From IMG/VR virus record IMGVR_UViG_3300045974_000093, positions 1-34,437 of that record: a DNA stretch of 34,437 nucleotides, one strand, 5' to 3'. Every line of letters begins with the position of its first letter. The first letter of the stretch is position 1. The stretch comes from a virus. Of the stretch, positions 1,662-31,988 are shown piece by piece. The notes beneath the pieces are model-generated. The model searched no databases and had not been told where the DNA came from. It saw only the letters and a program-made list of their open reading frames with translations. The translations under genes were made by a program, and so were the position numbers.

Positions 1662-2213
1662 ATGAGCATTTACAAGAAATTACAAGACGCACGAATCAAA
1701 CTGCAATCAATCAACATGAAGAAGTCCGGCCACAATAAGTTTGCAGGTTATCAGTATTTTGAACTTGGTGACTTTCTTTTACCGATTCAGCAAATTTTTA
1801 ATGAAATCGGATTGTGTGGCATAGTCTCATTTACAAAAGAAGTCGCTACTCTGCGCATTTATGATACTGAATCATCAGAATTTATTGAGTTCACTTCACC
1901 GATGGGTAGCGCGGCTTTAAAAGGCTGCCATGAAGTGCAAAACATCGGTGCAGTGGAAACATACCAGCGTCGATATTTGTACGTCGCCGCGATGGAGATT
2001 GTTGAGCATGACGCTATCGAAGCAGTGACAGGCAAAGATGATTTAAAAGATATTGCAATGGAAGTCATTGCATTAATTGAAGCGGAAAAAATTGCTGAAT
2101 CAATTAAATATTTAGAAGATCAAAATTTAGGCGCAGATAAAGCGAAGTTATGGAAACTTTTATCACCTAGGTATCAACAAGTAATTACCAATTTTAAAAA
2201 GGAAAACAAATGA
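1662..2213 (+). CDS. erf: ERF-family single-strand annealing (recombination) protein
   Basis: GGAGG lies 7 nt upstream of the ATG. The N-terminus IYKKLQDARIKLQSINMKKSGHNKFAGYQYFELGDFL aligns by eye with P22 Erf (FYARLAEIQEHLNAPKNQYNSFGKYKYRSCEDIL). A YQRRYLY motif follows. Confidence 0.8.
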   Translation: MSIYKKLQDARIKLQSINMKKSGHNKFAGYQYFELGDFLLPIQQIFNEIGLCGIVSFTKEVATLRIYDTESSEFIEFTSPMGSAALKGCHEVQNIGAVETYQRRYLYVAAMEIVEHDAIEAVTGKDDLKDIAMEVIALIEAEKIAESIKYLEDQNLGADKAKLWKLLSPRYQQVITNFKKENK

Positions 2214-2701
2214 ATATCTCTTTATACAAAGCAGCAGATGAACTAGCGCCATTGCTTGACCAAATTGATGACGATGGCGTCATCAGTGACGAATTAGCTG
2301 ATGCCCTTTCCATTTTTGAAGGCAAAGGCGTCGCTGTAATTGCTTACATTTTAAATTGTGAAGCTCAAGCGCAAATGATTAATGATGCAGCAGAAAAAAT
2401 GAAAGCCAGAGCAAAGCCATTTTTAAATAAATCCGAAAGATTAAAGCAATATTTGCTAGACAACATGAAGCGAACAGGAATAACTAATATTGAATCAGCA
2501 GAATTTACCGCAAAGTTAGATTTAAACAGAGATAAAAGCGTTGAAGTTTATGAGCAAGCATTATTGCCAGAAAAATTTTTAAAACAACCAAAGCCCGTTG
2601 AGCCTTCGCCCGATAAAATTGCAATTAAAAAAGCAATTGAATCAGGCGAAGAAATACAAGGCGCAAGAATTATTGCCAAAGACCGCTTAACAATTAAATA
2701 G
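2210..2701 (+). CDS. Siphovirus Gp157-like protein (recombination-module accessory)
   Basis: ATGA overlap with erf. The helical N-terminus ISLYKAADELAPLLDQIDDDG...EAQAQMINDAAEKMKARAKPFLNKSERLKQYL and the position between erf and ssb are typical of the Sipho_Gp157 family. Assigned from memory of the family pattern only. Confidence 0.55.
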   Translation: MNISLYKAADELAPLLDQIDDDGVISDELADALSIFEGKGVAVIAYILNCEAQAQMINDAAEKMKARAKPFLNKSERLKQYLLDNMKRTGITNIESAEFTAKLDLNRDKSVEVYEQALLPEKFLKQPKPVEPSPDKIAIKKAIESGEEIQGARIIAKDRLTIK

Positions 2702-2710
2702 GAAATCTAC

Positions 2711-3151
2711 ATGTCATCATTAAATAAATGCACGTTTATCGGGAATCTTACACGTGATCCTGAAATTAAATACTTACCAAGTAGCGAAGCTATTGCAAAC
2801 GTGAACATTGCTTGCAACGACAGATGGACGGACAAAACCACGGGCGAACGTAAAGAGTTAGTCGAATATATCCGCATCGCTTACTTTGGCAAACTGGCCG
2901 AAATTGTTGGGCAGTACGGTAAAAAAGGCGGGTTAGTCTATGTTGAAGGCAGCTTGCGCACACGTAAATACACGGACAAGGACGGAGTAGAAAAGTTTGC
3001 AACTGACATCAAGGGCAATGAATTCCGCATGTTAGGCGGAAAAGCTGAATCAGCGCCACCGCCACAGTCACAGCAGCGACTTGCACAACGCCAAGCACCA
3101 AGACAAGAAGCAAGCGGCTTTGATGACTTTGATGAAAATATACCATTTTAA
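2711..3151 (+). CDS. ssb: Single-stranded DNA-binding protein
   Basis: OB-fold N-terminus LNKCTFIGNLTRDPEIKYLPSSEAIANVNIA...EYIRIAYFGKLAEIVGQYGKKGGLVYVEGSLRTRKYTD closely parallels E. coli SSB. It has a Gln/Pro-rich linker and the canonical acidic tip DDFDENIPF. Confidence 0.95.
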   Translation: MSSLNKCTFIGNLTRDPEIKYLPSSEAIANVNIACNDRWTDKTTGERKELVEYIRIAYFGKLAEIVGQYGKKGGLVYVEGSLRTRKYTDKDGVEKFATDIKGNEFRMLGGKAESAPPPQSQQRLAQRQAPRQEASGFDDFDENIPF

Positions 3152-3169
3152 AAATAATTTAAATAAAAC

Positions 3170-3198
3170 TTGCAAGTAATTGCATTATGGTTTAATAT
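3170..3198 (+). promoter_or_regulatory. Sigma70-type promoter TTGCAA-17 nt-TAATAT
   Basis: -35 TTGCAA at 3170-3175, 17-nt spacer, -10 TAATAT at 3193-3198. It lies immediately after the ssb stop, at the head of an ORF-free segment. Confidence 0.5.
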
Positions 3199-3204
3199 GT
3201 AGTT

Positions 3205-3745
3205 ATTGCAGCGCGGTTGAGGGTAGGAAGTGAATTAATCGCGAGGGTAGTTTTGAACGCCAATCAAAATTGCATAAATATTCGCATAATGTATGTGTAG
3301 CCCGCACGTTTTCAAGCACCCTGACAAGGTTTAATTATGCAAAGTCCGAATGACTCACGTTACGAGTCACTACACGCATGAGCATTGATGCAAAGCCAGT
3401 AACTAACGGGTGTTGGTTGCCGAAGGTTTAATTAGTGCTCAGTCGTGTAGTAAATGAGCAAAATTTTAAACGGTGCTCAAAAACGGAAATATGCCGTGAC
3501 GCTAAAACGGGGAAGAAAGCAGTCTGGCCGCTTCCGGTTCGTGCGGTTGGCTTATGGAGATCGATATATCCGAATCTAAGAAGGGGTAGCGTCCTTCTAC
3601 TACACGTAACCTGCACCGCGTAAGAGTGCAGGAACTAGATACAAGCGGCTTGAGTTAGGTATTAGCAACCTAATAGTACAAGCTCCGTCGTAATTGTTTT
3701 TGGTCAACTCTGCTTTATGAGAATCAAGCTGCTTGTATTTAGTTA
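3205..3745 (+). ncRNA. Candidate large structured RNA or long structured leader (family unknown)
   Basis: No credible ORF: the longest is 62 aa, has no RBS and needs a non-ATG start. The segment looks more GC-rich than its flanks. Several stable complementarities exist: 3351-3356/3364-3369; 3370-3384/3436-3450; 3299-3308/3540-3552; 3610-3616/3626-3632; 3655-3660/3668-3673. Confidence 0.3.
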
Positions 3746-3761
3746 AAACTGGAGAATAAAA

Positions 3762-4859
3762 ATGAATGAAAAAATAATAAAATCTTTTGAAGCGTGGCAC
3801 AAAGAAAAGTTTCCGTTTGAGTCTCTGAAAAAGCTAAACAATGAAACTTATGTAGATGTTGTTGTATTTAGTCGCTTTGAAGGCTATCAAGCTGCACTTG
3901 CAGCACAGCCGCAGCAAGAGCCAGTAGCGTATCTATACCACGATGCCGCAAGCCTTGATGATTTGCTTCGAAATCGAACGAGCGAAATTCTGTATAGCGT
4001 TTGCTTTTCACTGCGAGGTCTTGGAGGGGCTTATAAAAATGAAACGCCACTCTATGCGCAGCTAGTACAGCAAGAGACGCCCAATAAAAAATACTGCGGG
4101 ACATGCTCCTCATTTCGCGTTGGTGATACTTGCAAAAAATGCGGAAGCGAAACGTTCATTCCTCATCCCGACTTTACAGAGCCACCATTGCCACCTATCG
4201 ACAAAATTCGAGAATTAGCGAAAGAAGTTGGATATGCAATTGGTGTTCACGGAACACAAGAACGCGATTTTGATGTTATCGCCGCACCTTGGGTAGATAG
4301 TGCAGTCGGGAATTACGGTTTAATCCAGCACATCGCAAAAGGTCTAAATGCAACCATCGTTGACCAAGAGCATAAACCGTTAGGCAGATACGCTGCAACA
4401 TTGCAGATTGATGGATGGTATAAGCCGCTTGATTTATCCGTTTGCCCTACCATGCAGCCAGTACAGCAAGACCATATTGCTGACAGCAGCAAATTGGTTC
4501 AAGCCGTGAATGCACTAGCAGTGCAAACAGGCGAATCAGCAGAGGAAATTACCGACTGGCTCACGAATAAAGGCGGCTTGACTCAGTTGATGCTTTCTCA
4601 CTTTTCTGCAAAGACAGCGGAGAGCAAGCAAGAATGGATTCCTGTAGGAAAAGTTGGTTTATCGGATGGTGCTTTGATATATGCAGTAACAAAACTTGGC
4701 AACGTTGTTGAAGCTGAATATTTCTGGCGGCAAGGAGGTGATCCAGATCGAATTATTTCAAGCGAGTATGGCGATGATTCAATGCGCGAATATACACACG
4801 TAATGCGCAGAGAAAAAATCCTTCCAAAGCCACCAGAGACAAAGGAAGGCGCGGTATGA
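3762..4859 (+). CDS. Hypothetical protein with internal Zn-ribbon and C-terminal DUF551-like domain (365 aa)
   Basis: GGAG lies 8 nt upstream of the ATG. CxxC...CxxC (YCGTCSSFRVGDTCKKCGSE). The C-terminus EWIPVGKVGLSDGALIYAV...YTHVMRREKILPKPPE resembles the phage DUF551 pattern (W..v..LP ... THWMPLP.PP). Confidence 0.65.
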   Translation: MNEKIIKSFEAWHKEKFPFESLKKLNNETYVDVVVFSRFEGYQAALAAQPQQEPVAYLYHDAASLDDLLRNRTSEILYSVCFSLRGLGGAYKNETPLYAQLVQQETPNKKYCGTCSSFRVGDTCKKCGSETFIPHPDFTEPPLPPIDKIRELAKEVGYAIGVHGTQERDFDVIAAPWVDSAVGNYGLIQHIAKGLNATIVDQEHKPLGRYAATLQIDGWYKPLDLSVCPTMQPVQQDHIADSSKLVQAVNALAVQTGESAEEITDWLTNKGGLTQLMLSHFSAKTAESKQEWIPVGKVGLSDGALIYAVTKLGNVVEAEYFWRQGGDPDRIISSEYGDDSMREYTHVMRREKILPKPPETKEGAV

Positions 4860-5261: not shown

Positions 5262-5733
5262 AGAAATAAAACCAGCAAGACAGCGTTATAGCGAATGGCT
5301 TACAGAGGGAAAAACATCTACGCTAACACACGATCAGCTTCATTCTCAATTTATGCAAAGCGAAATAAAAGATCTTCGCGCAGCGGTTGAAGCACTACAG
5401 AAAGAGAACACAAAACTGAAGCAACTAATTGCAGATAAAGAAAATGCAATTGCAGAGCTTACAAAAATTGTTCAGGAAACTGAAAAGTTTTACCAAAACA
5501 AAAAAAATACCTTTATTTCGCAAATTCAAGGGCAAGAAATTATTATTAAAAATTTAAGGTTTTCTTTAGATGAATGGTTTAAAAAGACTCTATTTGTTCA
5601 TGAAAACAAAGACAAACTTTTTGATGGATGTCTTGGTATTCACTTAGCAGATGCGATGCGCAAAGTAATTGAAGCGCAAGCAAAGCGTATTGCAGAGCTT
5701 GAATCAGTAACTAACACTAACTTGGAGAAATAA
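5254..5733 (+). CDS. Coiled-coil hypothetical protein (159 aa)
   Basis: Start MSEEIKPARQ is coupled to the upstream small ORF. Heptad-like KDLRAAVEALQKENTKLKQLIADKENAIAELTKIVQE. The 5209 start in the track lacks an RBS. Confidence 0.55.
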   Translation: MSEEIKPARQRYSEWLTEGKTSTLTHDQLHSQFMQSEIKDLRAAVEALQKENTKLKQLIADKENAIAELTKIVQETEKFYQNKKNTFISQIQGQEIIIKNLRFSLDEWFKKTLFVHENKDKLFDGCLGIHLADAMRKVIEAQAKRIAELESVTNTNLEK

Positions 5734-5943
5734 ATGAATAAAGAAGAACAAACTGAAAATTTAATAAATGAATTTACTGATTTTGCAGCAGAATATCCTC
5801 AAAGTGCTTTATCTTTAATTATTGGCTTATTTGTTAGCTTGCTTGAGCACAGCATAAAAGAGCAAGGAGGAGATGAAAATAAAGCAATAAAAATTGATGG
5901 GGGCGAAAAACGTGACGTCACTGTTCACGCAACAAAACATTAA
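5734..5943 (+). CDS. Hypothetical protein (69 aa); last gene of the rightward operon
   Basis: GGAG RBS, and the ATG directly follows the upstream TAA. One hydrophobic segment ALSLIIGLFVSLL. Confidence 0.5.
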   Translation: MNKEEQTENLINEFTDFAAEYPQSALSLIIGLFVSLLEHSIKEQGGDENKAIKIDGGEKRDVTVHATKH

Positions 5944-5944
5944 A

Positions 5945-6406
5945 TCAATAAATAACGCCAACTTGATCAATCAGCGCATTTAGTTTTTCAGCGAGCCTTG
6001 AAGCTTCTTTTGCCAAGTCTGAATATCTTCCTGCGCACTCTCCAAGTAAGTCTGCCCCGACTTCTCTTTGTTCAATAGGTCTTTGCTGATCTGCGGAAGT
6101 TGTGGGCACTCTTTTACTACTTGCGATTGTGTTGCGCAACCGCTCAAGAGAAGAATTGAGCTTATCATTACTAGCTTGCATTTGATTGAGTCTGACTTGA
6201 TATTCATCATATTTCTCATTTGCTTCTTTCTGTTTAGCTAGTTCGATTTTTATGTTTTCTTCACGCGCTCTTTGTGTTGCATCGTCCCACTTCTTCTGCA
6301 CTTCTGCGCGGCCTTGGTCTATAAACTTGTGTTTTTCGTGTTGATAGATTCCGAGCGCACAGCCAAAGGCTAAGGCAACTAAGCCGAGTTTAACCCAGTT
6401 AAGCAT
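5945..6406 (-). CDS. i-spanin (Rz-like)
   Basis: N-terminal TM (WVKLGLVALAFGCALGIY), then a long charged coiled coil. It is the last gene of the lysis cassette and contains an embedded lipoprotein ORF in another frame. Confidence 0.75.
   Translation of the reverse strand: MLNWVKLGLVALAFGCALGIYQHEKHKFIDQGRAEVQKKWDDATQRAREENIKIELAKQKEANEKYDEYQVRLNQMQASNDKLNSSLERLRNTIASSKRVPTTSADQQRPIEQREVGADLLGECAGRYSDLAKEASRLAEKLNALIDQVGVIY
5980..6219 (-). CDS. o-spanin (Rz1-like lipoprotein) embedded in the i-spanin gene
   Basis: Lipobox LLLSGC in MISSILLLSGCATQSQVVKECPQLPQI. Entirely nested out of frame inside 5945-6406. The probable real start is the Met at about 6168. Confidence 0.7.
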   Translation of the reverse strand: MRNMMNIKSDSIKCKLVMISSILLLSGCATQSQVVKECPQLPQISKDLLNKEKSGQTYLESAQEDIQTWQKKLQGSLKN

Positions 6407-27015: not shown

Positions 27016-27127
27016 GATTTTCTCCGCTAAGTTTTGCTGCGATGTAGTAACTATAAACCACGGGAAAATCATTTGCAAGTTTTATTTCAATTATTTTTAA
27101 TTTCTTTTGCTTGATCTTCCCATTGTT

Positions 27128-27322
27128 TCATTTTAATCTCCTTAATCTTTTACGCTCATCAACAATCGCGCCCCGTAGCGCCTCTTTTTCACTGTCACTT
27201 AGTATTTCTGCATAACCCTTTAAAATATGGCTTGGCGCTTGTGCTAAACGTCTTAAAACGCAACATTCTCTTGTAGCATGTGTTCTGCCTGCGTTCTTTA
27301 AACACCACTCACACCTTTTCAT
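27128..27322 (-). CDS. Small Cys-rich basic protein (64 aa), possible zinc-binding regulator
   Basis: MKRCEWCLKNAGRTHATRECCVLRR (CxxC...CC) and a basic C-terminus. Confidence 0.5.
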   Translation of the reverse strand: MKRCEWCLKNAGRTHATRECCVLRRLAQAPSHILKGYAEILSDSEKEALRGAIVDERKRLRRLK

Positions 27323-27494
27323 CTTCTTTTACTTCCAGCGCTTGATTCGCAAATTGAATCTGTATTGCAGTCAAAGTATTATCTTTTAATTGCTCACGAT
27401 ACTTGATTCGTTTTGCCCATGCTTTGTGGTCACGTCCCGCTTTTGTCAAAAGAGGAAATTTATCATTTACTGTACGAATATCAACCATTTTCAT
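27309..27494 (-). CDS. Hypothetical protein (61 aa)
   Basis: ATGA-type overlap with the upstream gene. No motif recognised. Confidence 0.45.
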   Translation of the reverse strand: MKMVDIRTVNDKFPLLTKAGRDHKAWAKRIKYREQLKDNTLTAIQIQFANQALEVKEDEKV

Positions 27495-28135
27495 ATCCTC
27501 AATTCTAAAAGTAAAGTTTTCAGCTTCTTAGCCGTTTCCGGATTAGGCGCAGCAAGCAACGGATGATTCGTCGCGCCTGACATTTTTAAAATATCGATCT
27601 TTGCTTCTGGCAATGCTTCCATCGCATAATCTATCCCGATTCGTTTCTTTTGCACCGCACTTGATAGCATCGTTACACGGCCATGAAAGTCTGAACCAAA
27701 TGAAGGGAAATAGCGCGGTTTTAAGCCGTTTAATTTTGCTTTGGCTACTACCCTAGCATAGGCATCTTTAAAAGCCATTCTAGCCGCTATAGCATCCCCA
27801 GAATTAAGCAAAGGAGCGGCCACAGACAATGCTTCTGCGATCTCATCGGTCAACAACCCAGATTCATGCTCTGATTTTGGTACGCTTGCCCATGCTTCGT
27901 CCGCGCTCATCCAAACATCATCAGCTTGCGCAAGGCATCCGTTCACAATATCTGCAAGTTGCGGCTTGAATCGGTTTGTAATGATGTAAGTCTGCGCAGA
28001 CTTCGCAACTTGCCCAGCGCCAAAATTCGAAAGAGCGTTCATCCACATTTCAATCTTTTCTGTCGTAAATGGCGCAAGATCATATTCAGTAATAATCAAT
28101 TTTATTGCTTTTGCAATTTCTTGTTTGTTATCCAT
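27491..28135 (-). CDS. Possible replicative-helicase loader (G39P / lambda P-like position)
   Basis: Start MDNKQEIAKAIKL overlaps the O-like stop (ATGGATAA). EIAKAIKLIITEYDLAPFTTEKIEMWMNALSNFGAGQVAKSAQTYIITNRFKPQLADIV resembles the G39P loader N-terminal pattern. It lies directly after the replisome organiser. Confidence 0.45.
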   Translation of the reverse strand: MDNKQEIAKAIKLIITEYDLAPFTTEKIEMWMNALSNFGAGQVAKSAQTYIITNRFKPQLADIVNGCLAQADDVWMSADEAWASVPKSEHESGLLTDEIAEALSVAAPLLNSGDAIAARMAFKDAYARVVAKAKLNGLKPRYFPSFGSDFHGRVTMLSSAVQKKRIGIDYAMEALPEAKIDILKMSGATNHPLLAAPNPETAKKLKTLLLELRI

Positions 28136-28919
28136 GAGCATGTTTCTCCATGTAGGCATCTAACGCATCAAACGTTTTTTGCTGAGCAAAACTTCTGTCA
28201 TTCACCCCGTTTTTCTCAATTAAAATAAAATGATCAACTTTTGCAGCTGTTCGGCAAATTAACTCAATGTCGTCATAGACCGTCTTGCGTTCGTTCTGCC
28301 CTTGAGAAAACGGGTCTATCTTGCAACCGTCAATTGCTTTGCATAACTGTCCAACTGTGTAACCGTCTTTCAATCGTGCCTTGATTGCCTTTTCTCTTTT
28401 GCCATCAAGTTTTGCAAATTCATGGTTGTGCTTCAATTTCCAATAATCGAACACTTCCAAAGTTTCGCTTTGCGGAACAGTGGTTTTAATATTCTTATCT
28501 CTTCTTATCTCTTCTGTATCTGTATCTAGTGCATTTTTGCGTTCTGTTGCGTTCGGTTGCGTTTGCTCTCGTTTTTTCTTCTGTTCTTCCCGAAATATTC
28601 TGCTTCTTTCCGCAGAGCTATCCTCTCGCTTTGGCTGTCTTTTCTCCCAGCCTGTAACATAGTCGCCATCAAGAACGCGACCTTGCATTTCCTCACGAAT
28701 TGCAACAACATTTTCAACATCAAGGTCTAATGCGGTTGCTACGTCTTCATCGCACCAACCTTGCGTTCGTCCGCGTTCGGTTGCGTTCGATGCTGTCGTT
28801 AGCATATGCAAATAAACAGAAATTACATCCCCAATCTTGTTATTCGACTTTCTTGCAATAGTGCGCCATTTTGGATCGTTAACCATATCGACCCACAACC
28901 TGAACCACGGATTTGCCAT
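28128..28919 (-). CDS. Replication initiator / phage replisome organiser (lambda O-like role)
   Basis: N-terminus NPWFRLWVDMVNDPKWRTIARKS...VISVYLHMLTTA (replisome-organiser N-domain pattern). C-terminus EVFDYWKLKHNHEFAKLDGKREKAIKARLKDGYTVGQLCKAIDGC (Phg_2220_C-like). Phased DNA repeats lie inside the linker. Confidence 0.7.
   Translation of the reverse strand: MANPWFRLWVDMVNDPKWRTIARKSNNKIGDVISVYLHMLTTASNATERGRTQGWCDEDVATALDLDVENVVAIREEMQGRVLDGDYVTGWEKRQPKREDSSAERSRIFREEQKKKREQTQPNATERKNALDTDTEEIRRDKNIKTTVPQSETLEVFDYWKLKHNHEFAKLDGKREKAIKARLKDGYTVGQLCKAIDGCKIDPFSQGQNERKTVYDDIELICRTAAKVDHFILIEKNGVNDRSFAQQKTFDALDAYMEKHAHG
28491..28788. repeat. Two clusters of 10-bp-phased TTGCGTTC iterons plus an AT-rich phased tract (candidate origin)
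   Basis: TTGCGTTC or one- to two-mismatch variants start at 28537, 28547, 28557 and at 28761, 28771, 28781. (A/C)TTCTTATCT units start at 28491 and 28501, with related units at 28511 and 28521. Confidence 0.5.
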
Positions 28920-30574: not shown

Positions 30575-31132
30575 TTAAAACCAAACTGCGCGTTTTTCCT
30601 GCCGCTTGGCTTTTTTGTTAAAAATATTTTTCAGTCTAATCAGATACTCTTTGCTATAAACTCTAGACCGTTTTGCATTGTGTAAATATTCTACTTTCTC
30701 CGCGCCTATTCTTTCTATTAGTCTTGGGTAATATTCTGCAATATTCCCACTTAATTGCATGTTGCATCTAACGCAAGACATATGCAAATTCCAAAGGTGA
30801 AAACGTAAAGCGGAATTAGAACCTCTAGATTTTAAATGTGACGCATCGCGTGGCACATCAAATCTATGAGGCGTTCCACAGCTTACGCAAGGCTTACCCC
30901 AATCTCGCCATTTGACGTAAAGATTAACTGCTTTCTGTGCATCGTCTGCGTAATCTTTTGTACTCTTTAGTTTTTCCTTTCTTTCTTTATCCGCTTGCCG
31001 AACCTGCTTTGCTTCTGCGCGCTTCTTTTTTTCTAGCAGCTGAAGTCCAAGAGTTGCGCCACATTCAGGCGAGCAAAAATTTTTGAATGGCAAAGAAGGG
31101 GCGCGACAAATCTTGCATTTTTTAGAGTTCAT
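30575..31132 (-). CDS. ninG: NinG/Rap-family recombination endonuclease
   Basis: Aligns by eye with lambda NinG along its length: FCSPECG (lambda WCSPECG); CVSCGT (CISCGT); SHLKSRGSNSALRFHLWNLHMSCVRCNMQLSGN ([33 protein letters not shown]); RIGAEKVEYL (RIGQEAVDEI). Confidence 0.9.
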   Translation of the reverse strand: MNSKKCKICRAPSLPFKNFCSPECGATLGLQLLEKKKRAEAKQVRQADKERKEKLKSTKDYADDAQKAVNLYVKWRDWGKPCVSCGTPHRFDVPRDASHLKSRGSNSALRFHLWNLHMSCVRCNMQLSGNIAEYYPRLIERIGAEKVEYLHNAKRSRVYSKEYLIRLKNIFNKKAKRQEKRAVWF

Positions 31133-31988
31133 TTTTCAGAACCATTCCAAAATTATTAACTTTTAGCATTTTTTCTGTACATACAATTTTTATTAATTTG
31201 TTTTTTTTAAATTGTGAATAATCTACATGATGATGCCATCTATTAAATTTAAAACTTAGTCTTGCGACATCTGGGTGCAAATCAACAAGCATTTTACTTT
31301 TTGGCAATGTTCCTTCATCATCATAAAAATCTGCGCTATTTCCTCCGCGCATTCGTTGAGTTGTAATTTTCCCGCATAAAAAAGCGTTAAATTGAATCGT
31401 ACAAAGCCCATCTTTTAACACGCGCAAACTTAAATCTGTATCTTCGTTATATCTACCGCGCCAACGATAACCGAAATTGTTTTCAATTAATAAACAAGAA
31501 TAAATTCTTGTATTTAAAACATAAGGAGGAACCTTATCTGTTTTTTTGCAAAATGAATAATAATTGAGACCAGAAACTGGAACATTTTTATATCTATCAA
31601 CAAACTCTTCAGCAGCAGCTAACGTCGATCCTGTTTTTACTTCATATTTTTCATTTCTGTTTAAATAATGAAAAGCATCAATATTGTCATCCATTACCCA
31701 ATGACGCTTAAATCCATTTTTTAACGAATGATCTATGCAAAAATTACGAGCCGCGCCTGGGCCGACACTTTTTGAAAATCCTAAATCATCACAAGTTTCG
31801 TAATTTTCTTTATATGATTCTGGCAATATTAAAATTTCCCCAAAACATCGGCCATTTTTATATAAATCATATTCTGATTTTTCAACAACAATAAAATGAG
31901 AAACACCCATTTCATTTAATGCCCTTGTTGTTAACCCGTTTTTGCTTCGTCCTTTTGACACTATATATATTGGATATTTAGGATTCAT
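31122..31988 (-). CDS. Putative GT-A-like glycosyltransferase (TET/JBP-associated-glycosyltransferase-like); function unverified
   Basis: The ORF itself is secure at 288 aa. It has an N-terminal beta-alpha-beta YPIYIVSKGRSKNGLTTRAL, an acidic WVMDDNID motif and NEDTDLSLR. The family assignment is recalled from memory of phage DNA-glycosyltransferase-like proteins. Confidence 0.45.
   Translation of the reverse strand: MNPKYPIYIVSKGRSKNGLTTRALNEMGVSHFIVVEKSEYDLYKNGRCFGEILILPESYKENYETCDDLGFSKSVGPGAARNFCIDHSLKNGFKRHWVMDDNIDAFHYLNRNEKYEVKTGSTLAAAEEFVDRYKNVPVSGLNYYSFCKKTDKVPPYVLNTRIYSCLLIENNFGYRWRGRYNEDTDLSLRVLKDGLCTIQFNAFLCGKITTQRMRGGNSADFYDDEGTLPKSKMLVDLHPDVARLSFKFNRWHHHVDYSQFKKNKLIKIVCTEKMLKVNNFGMVLKNEL

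Follow-up and report, generated by a model that had tools for sequence, protein, structure and literature searches.

The window analysed here is a 34.4-kb phage contig from a JGI metagenome, taken at its full length of 34,437 nucleotides (nt; IMG/VR record IMGVR_UViG_3300045974_000093), and the subject of this report is the 610-nt intergenic segment at positions 3152–3761, called the gap below. It interrupts the early operon of the + strand, between the end of ssb at 3151 and the next open reading frame (ORF), which starts at 3762 and has GGAG at 3750 (Table 1). The original prediction had presented the gap as an ORF-free, helix-rich segment and as a candidate for one large structured RNA of unknown family. 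We found that the gap is non-coding, and comparison with other phages showed that at least its central 280 nt (3349–3632) are modules of a widespread, uncurated phage RNA family.

The coding status of the gap was as predicted. It is the longest stretch of the contig without an ORF of at least 70 amino acids (aa); the runner-up has 412 nt (27079–27490). The largest ORFs inside it have 62 aa and GVG starts, and there is also a 41-aa ATG ORF without a ribosome-binding site. Stop-codon recoding as a cause of the gap was ruled out, as TAA, TAG and TGA are all present in each of the six frames. A six-frame chimeric query of the gap against 5.8 billion proteins gave no match at E ≤ 10, and searches against Pfam and PHROGs gave nothing real at E ≤ 1. 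As there was no protein similarity in any frame, we saw no sign of a decayed gene; the gap is non-coding and is not a gene remnant. The GC skew of the gap is positive (G-rich, C-poor). Its GC content does exceed that of the flanks, as had been noticed by eye, but only slightly (0.40–0.47 versus 0.34–0.46).

Table 1. Genes of the window and sequence or structure features of the gap (MFE, present in the minimum free energy fold)
Feature	Positions	Strand	Remarks
Early operon		+	pentapeptide/DUF5758 protein, small ORFs, Erf, gp157/Gam-like, SSB, gap, 365-aa protein, two small genes
Erf	1662–2213	+	
gp157/Gam-like protein	2210–2701	+	
SSB	2711–3151	+	
Promoter-like site	3170–3198	+	TTGCAA-17-TAATAT, read from sequence, 8/12 consensus positions
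Two 5′ hairpins (3212–3273)	3212–3220/3235–3243 and 3247–3256/3264–3273	+	MFE, pair probabilities 0.73 and 0.98
Word B0	3292–3300	+	UAUGUGUAG; complementary to the CUACACG words A (3369–3376) and A′ (3599–3606)
Conserved unit, ∼130 nt	3349–3481	+	small hairpin, long hairpin, linker, 3′ hairpin
Small hairpin	3352–3356/3364–3368	+	MFE, high pair probability
Long hairpin (3369–3451)	3369–3376/3444–3451 plus 3379–3389/3431–3441	+	MFE, 2x2 internal loop
Linker and 3′ hairpin	3455–3460/3473–3478	+	linker AAAUG, then the hairpin
Closed domain	3444–3606	+	closing helix CGUGUAGUA (3444–3452) with UACUACACG (3598–3606)
Hairpin with conserved loop	3610–3616/3626–3632	+	CCUGCAC-CGCGUAAGA-GUGCAGG, pair probability 0.99
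21-bp helix (3633–3744)	3633–3653/3724–3744	+	encloses hairpin 3654–3660/3668–3674; pair probability 0.99
Mosaic 365-aa protein	3762–4859	+	GGAG Shine-Dalgarno at 3750–3753
Replication initiator and helicase loader	28128–28919 and 27491–28159	−	
Genes of the − strand		−	replication initiator, helicase loader, terminase, portal, tail, lysis, NinB, NinG, TAGT glycosyltransferase

Relatives of the gap were reached by exact-probe scans and by regular expressions run across loci, and it was in this way that the conserved unit was recognized. The probe GAGTCACTACACGCATGA (3364–3381) matched two IMG/VR phage contigs, L195 and L196 (nhmmer of the window element against L196: E = 3e-11). In a genome scan a related 18-mer matched a single locus of an Undibacterium genome (L209), and the regular-expression search found the unit in L009, an SSB-related IMG/VR locus. 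Copies of the unit were thus seen in L195, L196 and L009, and three copies in L209. With the Undibacterium unit as a query, blastn returned ∼120 phage records at E ≤ 0.01, nearly all of the matches being in unannotated DNA. They include HK620, HK633, mEp460, Stx2 phages, P1, IME11 and other N4-like phages, HC6-like phages and SopranoGao, as well as Klebsiella, Salmonella, Yersinia, Erwinia, Hafnia, Edwardsiella, Aeromonas and Ralstonia phages. The unit's 3′ arm and 3′ hairpin and the closed domain are common to the window, P1 and an Stx2 phage. The central modules are 85–98% identical among phages that are otherwise unrelated.

Throughout the family the small hairpin directly abuts the long hairpin, which is followed by a linker, RAAUG, and by the 3′ hairpin of 6 bp. 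The stems of the small hairpin (GACUC/GAGUC, GACUGG/CCAGUC, GGCUGG/CCAGCC, CCUGAC/GUCAGG and GCCGG/CCGGC) differ in sequence in almost every copy, with the pairing always kept. The base of the long hairpin is conserved, namely ACYACACG, a 2x2 loop CA/GU, then UGAGCAUUG / CAGUGCUCA; its family consensus is ACYACACG-CA-UGAG / CUCA-GU-CGUGURGU and the window has ACUACACG-CA-UGAGCAUUGAU / AUUAGUGCUCA-GU-CGUGUAGU. The apex of this hairpin (40–70 nt; 3390–3430 in the window) is unrelated among copies. The stems of the 3′ hairpin covary (UGCGCA/UGCGCG, UGCUCA/UGAGCA and UGAGCA/UGCUCA).

In a MAFFT alignment of six units, the window included, the 17-bp long stem was 100% paired in 6/6 units, and four of its pairs were changed on both sides. 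For the whole structure of the six units 88.5% of the cells were paired (0/500 shuffles as high) and the covariation score was 0.280 versus 0.186 in shuffled alignments (1/500 as high), while slid controls were 28–40% paired. From these six units a covariance model (R1) was built. It gave 106 bits for 3349–3475 on the + strand of the window, which is a training sequence, versus 14 bits on the − strand; independent, more distant matches in HK620 and in unannotated regions of IME11, HC6 and SopranoGao had 32–37 bits (E ∼1e-7 to 1e-6). The alignment extended to ten sequences, fitted to R1, was 90.6% paired and had 12 pairs changed on both sides, with a score of 0.303 versus 0.155 (0/500 as high). 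The window belongs to the family as R1 defines it: all 17 pairs of the long stem form, and compensatory substitutions are seen across the members, in few independent lineages. By such comparison the helices of the unit were shown to be kept by compensatory change. The conserved helices hold G-U pairs. Outside the unit, the hairpin at 3610–3632 has a counterpart in L209 (2939–2919), CCUGAC-CGCGUAAGA-GUCAGG, with the flanks CACGUAA ... AAC as in the window; between the two, one base pair has been deleted on both sides of the stem.

The recurring complementary words that had been listed earlier (CTACACG with YGTGTAG, TGAGCA with TGCTCA) are present, and those of the first pair take part in two competing helices. 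The 3′ arm of the long hairpin, strand B (CGUGUAGU in the window, GUGUGGUG elsewhere), is complementary to its 5′ arm A and also to a downstream word A′, which is ACUACACG in the window and CACCACA elsewhere, and which always stands directly after a hairpin. The pairing of B with A′ closes the domain 3444–3606. In the window the closing helix corresponds to an inverted repeat (I11) with 9/9 positions complementary, the first hairpin of the domain comes after AAAUG, and a hairpin at 3579–3585/3592–3598 abuts the 3′ strand. When the B-to-A′ segment was folded in isolation, one and the same architecture was the minimum free energy (MFE) structure in 10/10 elements (window 3441–3611 and nine homologous domains). 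In eight elements 7–9 of the 9 pairs of the closing helix B:A′ form; pairs changed on both sides occur in the window (A-U for G-C) and in P1. As strand B is common to the long hairpin and to the closed domain, the two folds are mutually exclusive for that 8-bp segment; B cannot pair with A and A′ together, and so the family has two alternative registers, which could form a conformational switch.

Folding of 3200–3761 gave a z-score of −5.15 on the + strand versus −3.06 on the − strand. This is the most extreme value among all 562-nt windows of the contig, the others being −3.7 or weaker, as estimated from few shuffles. Sub-windows of 300 nt were unexceptional against the genome background. The helices proposed earlier at 3351–3369, 3370–3450, 3610–3632 and 3655–3673 were recovered in the MFE structure with high pair probability. 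A further proposed pairing, of 3299–3308 with 3540–3552, appeared in one MFE structure and was without comparative support. The word B0 belongs to an inverted repeat (I20) and pairs with 3598–3606 in the MFE structure; in L209 its counterpart GUGUGGUGAAU lies upstream of the first unit. For the two 5′ hairpins no homologue was found. The 21-bp helix, which the original prediction had not listed, was also in the MFE structure. It corresponds to the inverted repeat I1, 90% complementary as DNA, with its two mismatches becoming G-U pairs on the + strand, and it ends 5 nt ahead of the GGAG of the 365-aa gene. Judging solely from its position after the conserved hairpin, the segment 3633–3744 may be a diverged second long hairpin (a 'unit 2'); model R1 did not detect it.

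The genomic surroundings of the copies are diverse, yet all copies examined are co-oriented with the flanking genes, and the modules usually lie after early or late promoters or beside tRNA genes. In HK620 the unit and the closed domain are located between the annotated pR′/qut and the late terminator tQ, i.e. within the late leader transcript. The L009 element comes after ssb-ninB-ninG and ahead of a ParB/methylase gene, in the order promoter-like sites, unit, hammerhead, terminator-like hairpin (this hairpin was read by eye; the scan listed none). The L009 hammerhead (5906–5952; type I, RF00163) scored 32 bits (cut-off 34; E = 1.5e-4) and lies within the unit's own 635-nt non-coding region. 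In L196 and in Stx2a_WGPS2 the element separates the cI-type repressor operon, which it directly follows, from the early-left genes; in L196 a terminator and a promoter (TTGACT-17-TAAAGT) precede it and small genes follow. The L209 non-coding region has 1250 nt and carries its three units between a terminator and a recT-exo operon. In P1, HC6 and IME11 the element adjoins tRNA genes, the IME11 copy being in a 2.1-kb unannotated region. The view that a phage-borne non-coding RNA beside a recombination module would be unusual did not hold, given how widespread the modules are in phages of Gamma- and Betaproteobacteria.

Several observations on individual copies deserve mention. A 26–28-nt stretch, GGUGAAUGCGCAGGCUGAUGCGC, formed by the end of the 3′ arm, the linker and the 3′ hairpin, is 96–100% identical across very different phage groups: P1 (OP279344, 65636–65663), Stx2a_WGPS2 (5467–5494), Klebsiella phages K751, T765 and P01, Hafnia phage yong1, Edwardsiella phage EPP-1 and Aeromonas phage ST4. 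Such conservation suggests a contact with a conserved host factor. In P1 a second unit appears to begin directly after the first. The unannotated region of IME11 (L214, 487–2571) holds a tmRNA-like module, the unit, two tRNAs and a tRNA-like structure (1718–1786; 7-bp acceptor stem, T-arm and encoded CCA) that ARAGORN did not call. The HK620 leader segment (L212, 2200–2620), with the unit, the start of the closed domain and a tag frame, was present in 157 of 5426 complete Escherichia coli genomes and is never annotated in RefSeq.

Other searches bounded the distribution of the gap as such. With the gap as a query, blastn gave no match in INPHARED phages or PLSDB plasmids, and a megablast of the first 12 kb against phages gave none either. 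Neither nhmmer nor blastn detected a copy of the gap in 62 IMG/VR loci of SSB relatives or in five contigs encoding relatives of the 365-aa protein. L009, in which the regular expressions later revealed a unit, is one of the SSB loci, none of which has a long ORF-free gap directly downstream of ssb. The probes 3610–3632 and 3294–3310 failed or gave chance matches only, probe 3534–3550 gave three GC-rich chance matches, and probe CTACTACACGTAACCTGC matched coding regions of unrelated phages. Matches of the genome scan in Paenibacillus, SAR86 and other genomes were bare 18–20-mers.

Comparison with known RNA families was made with Rfam 15, by a scan of the whole window at gathering thresholds and by a permissive cmscan of 3100–3800 on both strands (E ≤ 10). 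The former gave 0 matches and the latter three chance matches only (rliB, RUF1 and Afu_514), so that membership in an Rfam family, which the original prediction had proposed checking, was not borne out; 6S, introns, ROOL/GOLLD/HEARO and every other Rfam family were without a match. No hammerhead or other self-cleaving ribozyme was found by Rfam in the window, the type I hammerhead being confined to its homologue L009. The speculation that the gap contains a P4-like helix and conserved strings of RNase P RNA was not upheld: neither strand gave a match to bacterial RNase P (classes A and B) at E ≤ 10, and there is no P1–P4 core. The likeness consists of short strings, one of which, CGCGUAAGAG, is a conserved hairpin loop of the phage family.

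A tmRNA was rejected for the window, in which ARAGORN found 0 genes, neither of a tRNA nor of a tmRNA, and no Rfam tmRNA model matched at E ≤ 10. There is some likeness to tmRNA in the homologues, as the unit stands directly 3′ of a tmRNA-like tag reading frame in IME11 and HK620, whereas the window has no tag frame and no tRNA-like acceptor or T-arm closes its element. The tag frames are GCAAACGAAGAAATGTATCTGGCCGTAGCTTAA in HK620 (L212, NC_002730, ∼2301–2333; ANEEMYLAVA*) and 1322–1354 in IME11 (L214, NC_019423; ANDDVVLMAA*). The Rfam model tmRNA_permuted gave 33 bits in IME11 (cut-off 47; E = 6e-5). ARAGORN called no tmRNA in the homologues, and neither blastn nor nhmmer found similarity of the family to E. 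coli ssrA.

The closest curated relative is STnc100 (RF02076), which the window element does not match by score but does match in architecture. STnc100 has a closing helix UGGUG...CACCA, a hairpin right after AAU(G) and a final hairpin that abuts the 3′ closing strand; the closed domain of the window and its homologues have the same layout, a likeness of shape that is not proof of homology. Both families are carried by phages or prophages, and STnc100 and PasD have been described as prophage small RNAs (sRNAs; bioRxiv 10.64898/2026.05.13.724894). An apparent P1 paralogue of the closed domain (L216, 2191–2311, near tciA) reached 33.9 bits with the STnc100 model (cut-off 47); HK620, L209, L009 and L196 gave no STnc100 match at E ≤ 0.1–1. 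The window differs from STnc100 in the sequence of the closing helix (CGUGUAGUA/UACUACACG), in having no 3′ terminator and in the fused long hairpin, which is outside the STnc100 models.

Two further systems are similar in position. The lambdoid late leader (pR′ to tR′/tQ; lambda '6S RNA', StxS) resembles the present family in that the HK620 homologue sits inside the pR′/qut–tQ leader and that L009 has a promoter–RNA–terminator layout after ninG; this likeness was seen in HK620 and L009. The window element differs: it belongs to an early operon, where it follows erf-gam-ssb and not a Q gene, and it lacks a terminator. The nascent put RNA of phage HK022, transcribed downstream of early promoters, has two stem-loops that abut directly (PMC9378689). 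Several homologues of the unit occupy a comparable position, a positional analogy; the put RNA has ∼70 nt against ∼130 nt of the unit, and no downstream terminators were seen in the window. Taken together, this is an RNA family that no Rfam model detects in the members tested, yet it is present in model phages, and the window adds a divergent member.

As to how the gap would be transcribed, the original prediction had named a near-consensus sigma70 promoter at 3170–3198. The sequence TTGCAA-17-TAATAT is indeed there, but with 8/12 consensus positions it does not count as near-consensus; it is below the threshold of our promoter scan (9/12) and was therefore not listed. It is preceded by an A/T-rich tract (3151–3168) and overlapped by an imperfect palindrome (3171–3211). 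By analogy, the homologous elements of L196, L009 and HK620 lie directly downstream of promoter-like or annotated promoters. GGTTTAAT overlaps the −10 region at 3189.

The gap also contains and is flanked by direct repeats. An exact 12-mer, AAGGTTTAATTA, occurs at 3326–3337 and 3423–3434, 97 nt apart and at no other site of the contig; the chance expectation for some 12-mer to be repeated in this way is ∼0.01. The copy at 3423–3434 is part of the 3′ side of the long hairpin. In searches for the pair pattern of AAGGTTTAATTA only AT-rich tandem repeats were returned from IMG/VR, and at least 120 unrelated loci in the metagenome scan. Imperfect direct repeats, ATTTAAATAAAACT... (3157–3179) and ATTTAGTTAAAACT... 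(3737–3759), 74% identical, flank the gap, which looks as if ∼580 bp had been inserted into a short spacer between ssb and the next gene. The flanking repeat makes a weak target-site duplication, and its motif ATTTARWTAAAACT is present elsewhere in the contig too; a 14-mer of the flanking repeats is enriched elsewhere in the contig (13 matches versus 4.3 expected). An attP site was rejected, as there is no integrase among the ORFs scanned; a reverse transcriptase is also absent from these ORFs.

The co-orientation of the copies with their flanking genes, the G-U pairs, the location within the HK620 leader and the ribozyme neighbouring the L009 unit argue that the element functions as a + strand RNA. 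In this respect the prediction of a non-coding structured RNA element on the + strand stands, being supported by homologous modules with compensatory changes, co-oriented, one of them inside an annotated late leader (HK620). What did not stand is a single large RNA with one global fold, as only about half of the 610 nt (3349–3632) has relatives, and these are reusable modules, single or in tandem. Most likely, the gap is transcribed on the + strand into a structured non-coding RNA of ∼550 nt. With middling confidence we further propose that this is a stable phage RNA, possibly processed at the 21-bp helix, that acts in trans. Transcription would start at the element's own weak promoter or come by read-through from ssb, and the RNA would accumulate in a stable, probably processed form. 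The 21-bp helix before the ribosome-binding site of the next gene is a plausible RNase III-type processing site, where the RNA would be separated from the downstream mRNA. By analogy, the RNA may act in trans as the prophage sRNAs STnc100 and PasD do, or it may bind a conserved host factor, and the pairings that share one arm may serve as a switch between conformations.

Considerations of several kinds weigh against this proposal. The promoter-like site is weak and the scan predicted no intrinsic terminator in or after the gap, so the RNA may exist only within polycistronic early mRNA. About half of the gap (3199–3348, 3480–3578 and 3654–3723) is without a homologue, and a single functional RNA of 550 nt is not established. 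As the phage is a singleton, there is no orthologous gap for a direct covariation test; in the ten-sequence alignment, itself shaped by R1, close relatives (L209 A and C; IME11 and HC6) leave few independent events. The window gave no STnc100 match at E ≤ 10. Finally, the registers A:B and B:A′ cannot both form.

The most serious rival, possible though somewhat unlikely in our estimate, is a cis-acting leader. The element would then protect the transcript from Rho, or be processed by RNase III/E and stabilize the mRNA, or bring about put-like antitermination, with A:B and B:A′ as an attenuator-type switch. Copies are indeed in classic leader positions: HK620 between pR′/qut and tQ, L196 and Stx2a_WGPS2 after the cI-type operon, L009 between a promoter and a terminator-like hairpin, and L209 upstream of recT-exo. 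The end of the window's 21-bp helix 5 nt before the Shine-Dalgarno of the next gene, the positive GC skew, which disfavours Rho loading, and the put RNAs, likewise two abutting stem-loops after early promoters (PMC9378689), point the same way. Yet the copies by tRNA genes in virulent phages (P1 region, HC6 and IME11) fit stable RNA genes better, the window has no downstream terminator that would need read-through, the unit is about twice the size of a put RNA, and tandem arrays such as the three copies of L209 are unexpected for an antiterminator. A bolder extension of the trans-acting RNA, which we hold to be improbable, concerns the family as a whole in temperate and virulent phages of Beta- and Gammaproteobacteria: chains of A/B/A′ would flip registers, some members would be fused to tag modules, and the RNA would engage the ribosome and trans-translation or RNA polymerase and would not be a base-pairing sRNA. 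Engagement of a conserved host machine would explain why a 26–28-nt stretch is 96–100% identical in P1, Stx2, Klebsiella, Hafnia, Edwardsiella and Aeromonas phages.

It is very unlikely, in our view, that the gap works at the level of DNA, as an origin, a site for recombination or packaging, an array bound by proteins or an insertion resembling a miniature inverted-repeat transposable element (MITE), with the hairpins as by-products of inverted repeats. The unit does resemble terminal inverted repeats around a variable centre and is reused, sometimes in tandem, in unrelated genomes; the gap adjoins recombination genes and has the repeated 12-mer and the flanking repeats described above. On the other strand, though, the conserved G-U pairs would be A-C mismatches; the fold z-score is asymmetric between the strands and the orientation always follows transcription; the 2x2 internal loop is conserved and not repaired; and a hammerhead and annotated promoter and terminator boundaries accompany the homologues. 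Moreover, the genes of the replication initiator and the helicase loader are elsewhere in the window, and the 18-mer genome scan gave one related bacterial locus, not the many copies of a MITE. Least credible of all is a decayed gene or chance structure, i.e. useless sequence remaining after gene loss or a recombination scar, stable by accident. Such an origin would agree with the unexceptional 300-nt sub-windows and with a singleton phage in which conservation of the whole gap is not demonstrable and half of the gap is without relatives. For 3349–3632 it is largely refuted by modules 85–98% identical, with compensatory changes, in otherwise unrelated phages; the lack of protein similarity in any frame and a full-length fold z-score that is the strongest of the contig also speak against it.

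Structured RNAs of phages are poorly catalogued, and an orphan gap of 610 nt is now tied to conserved modules that are unannotated even in model phages: in the HK620 late leader, in the P1 tRNA region, and in Stx2 and N4-like phages. If the family is functional, it could be studied in genetically tractable systems, where a novel means by which phages govern their own transcripts or the host machinery might come to light. A new curated RNA family is the minimum that these results justify, and with it many 'empty' intergenic regions of annotated phages would be filled.

The phage itself has no close relatives: among the 5.8 billion proteins, neither its SSB nor its 365-aa protein had a relative above ∼60% identity. 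The closest SSB is 60% identical, and the nearest named SSBs are those of Undibacterium and Limnohabitans; the host is probably among freshwater Betaproteobacteria. The 365-aa protein is a mosaic with a CxxC...CxxC zinc ribbon, a conserved core (residues ∼105–230, GVHGTQERDFDVIAAPW) common to ∼35 proteins and a separate module (235–294) common to DUF551-type proteins; the upstream RNA is absent from the homologues of this protein that were examined. The early operon opens with a pentapeptide-repeat and DUF5758 protein (4–483), a possible DNA mimic or anti-defence candidate. On the − strand a TET-associated glycosyltransferase (TAGT, E = 6e-48) adjoins NinG (31122–31988 and 30575–31132), a hint of DNA base hypermodification in this phage.

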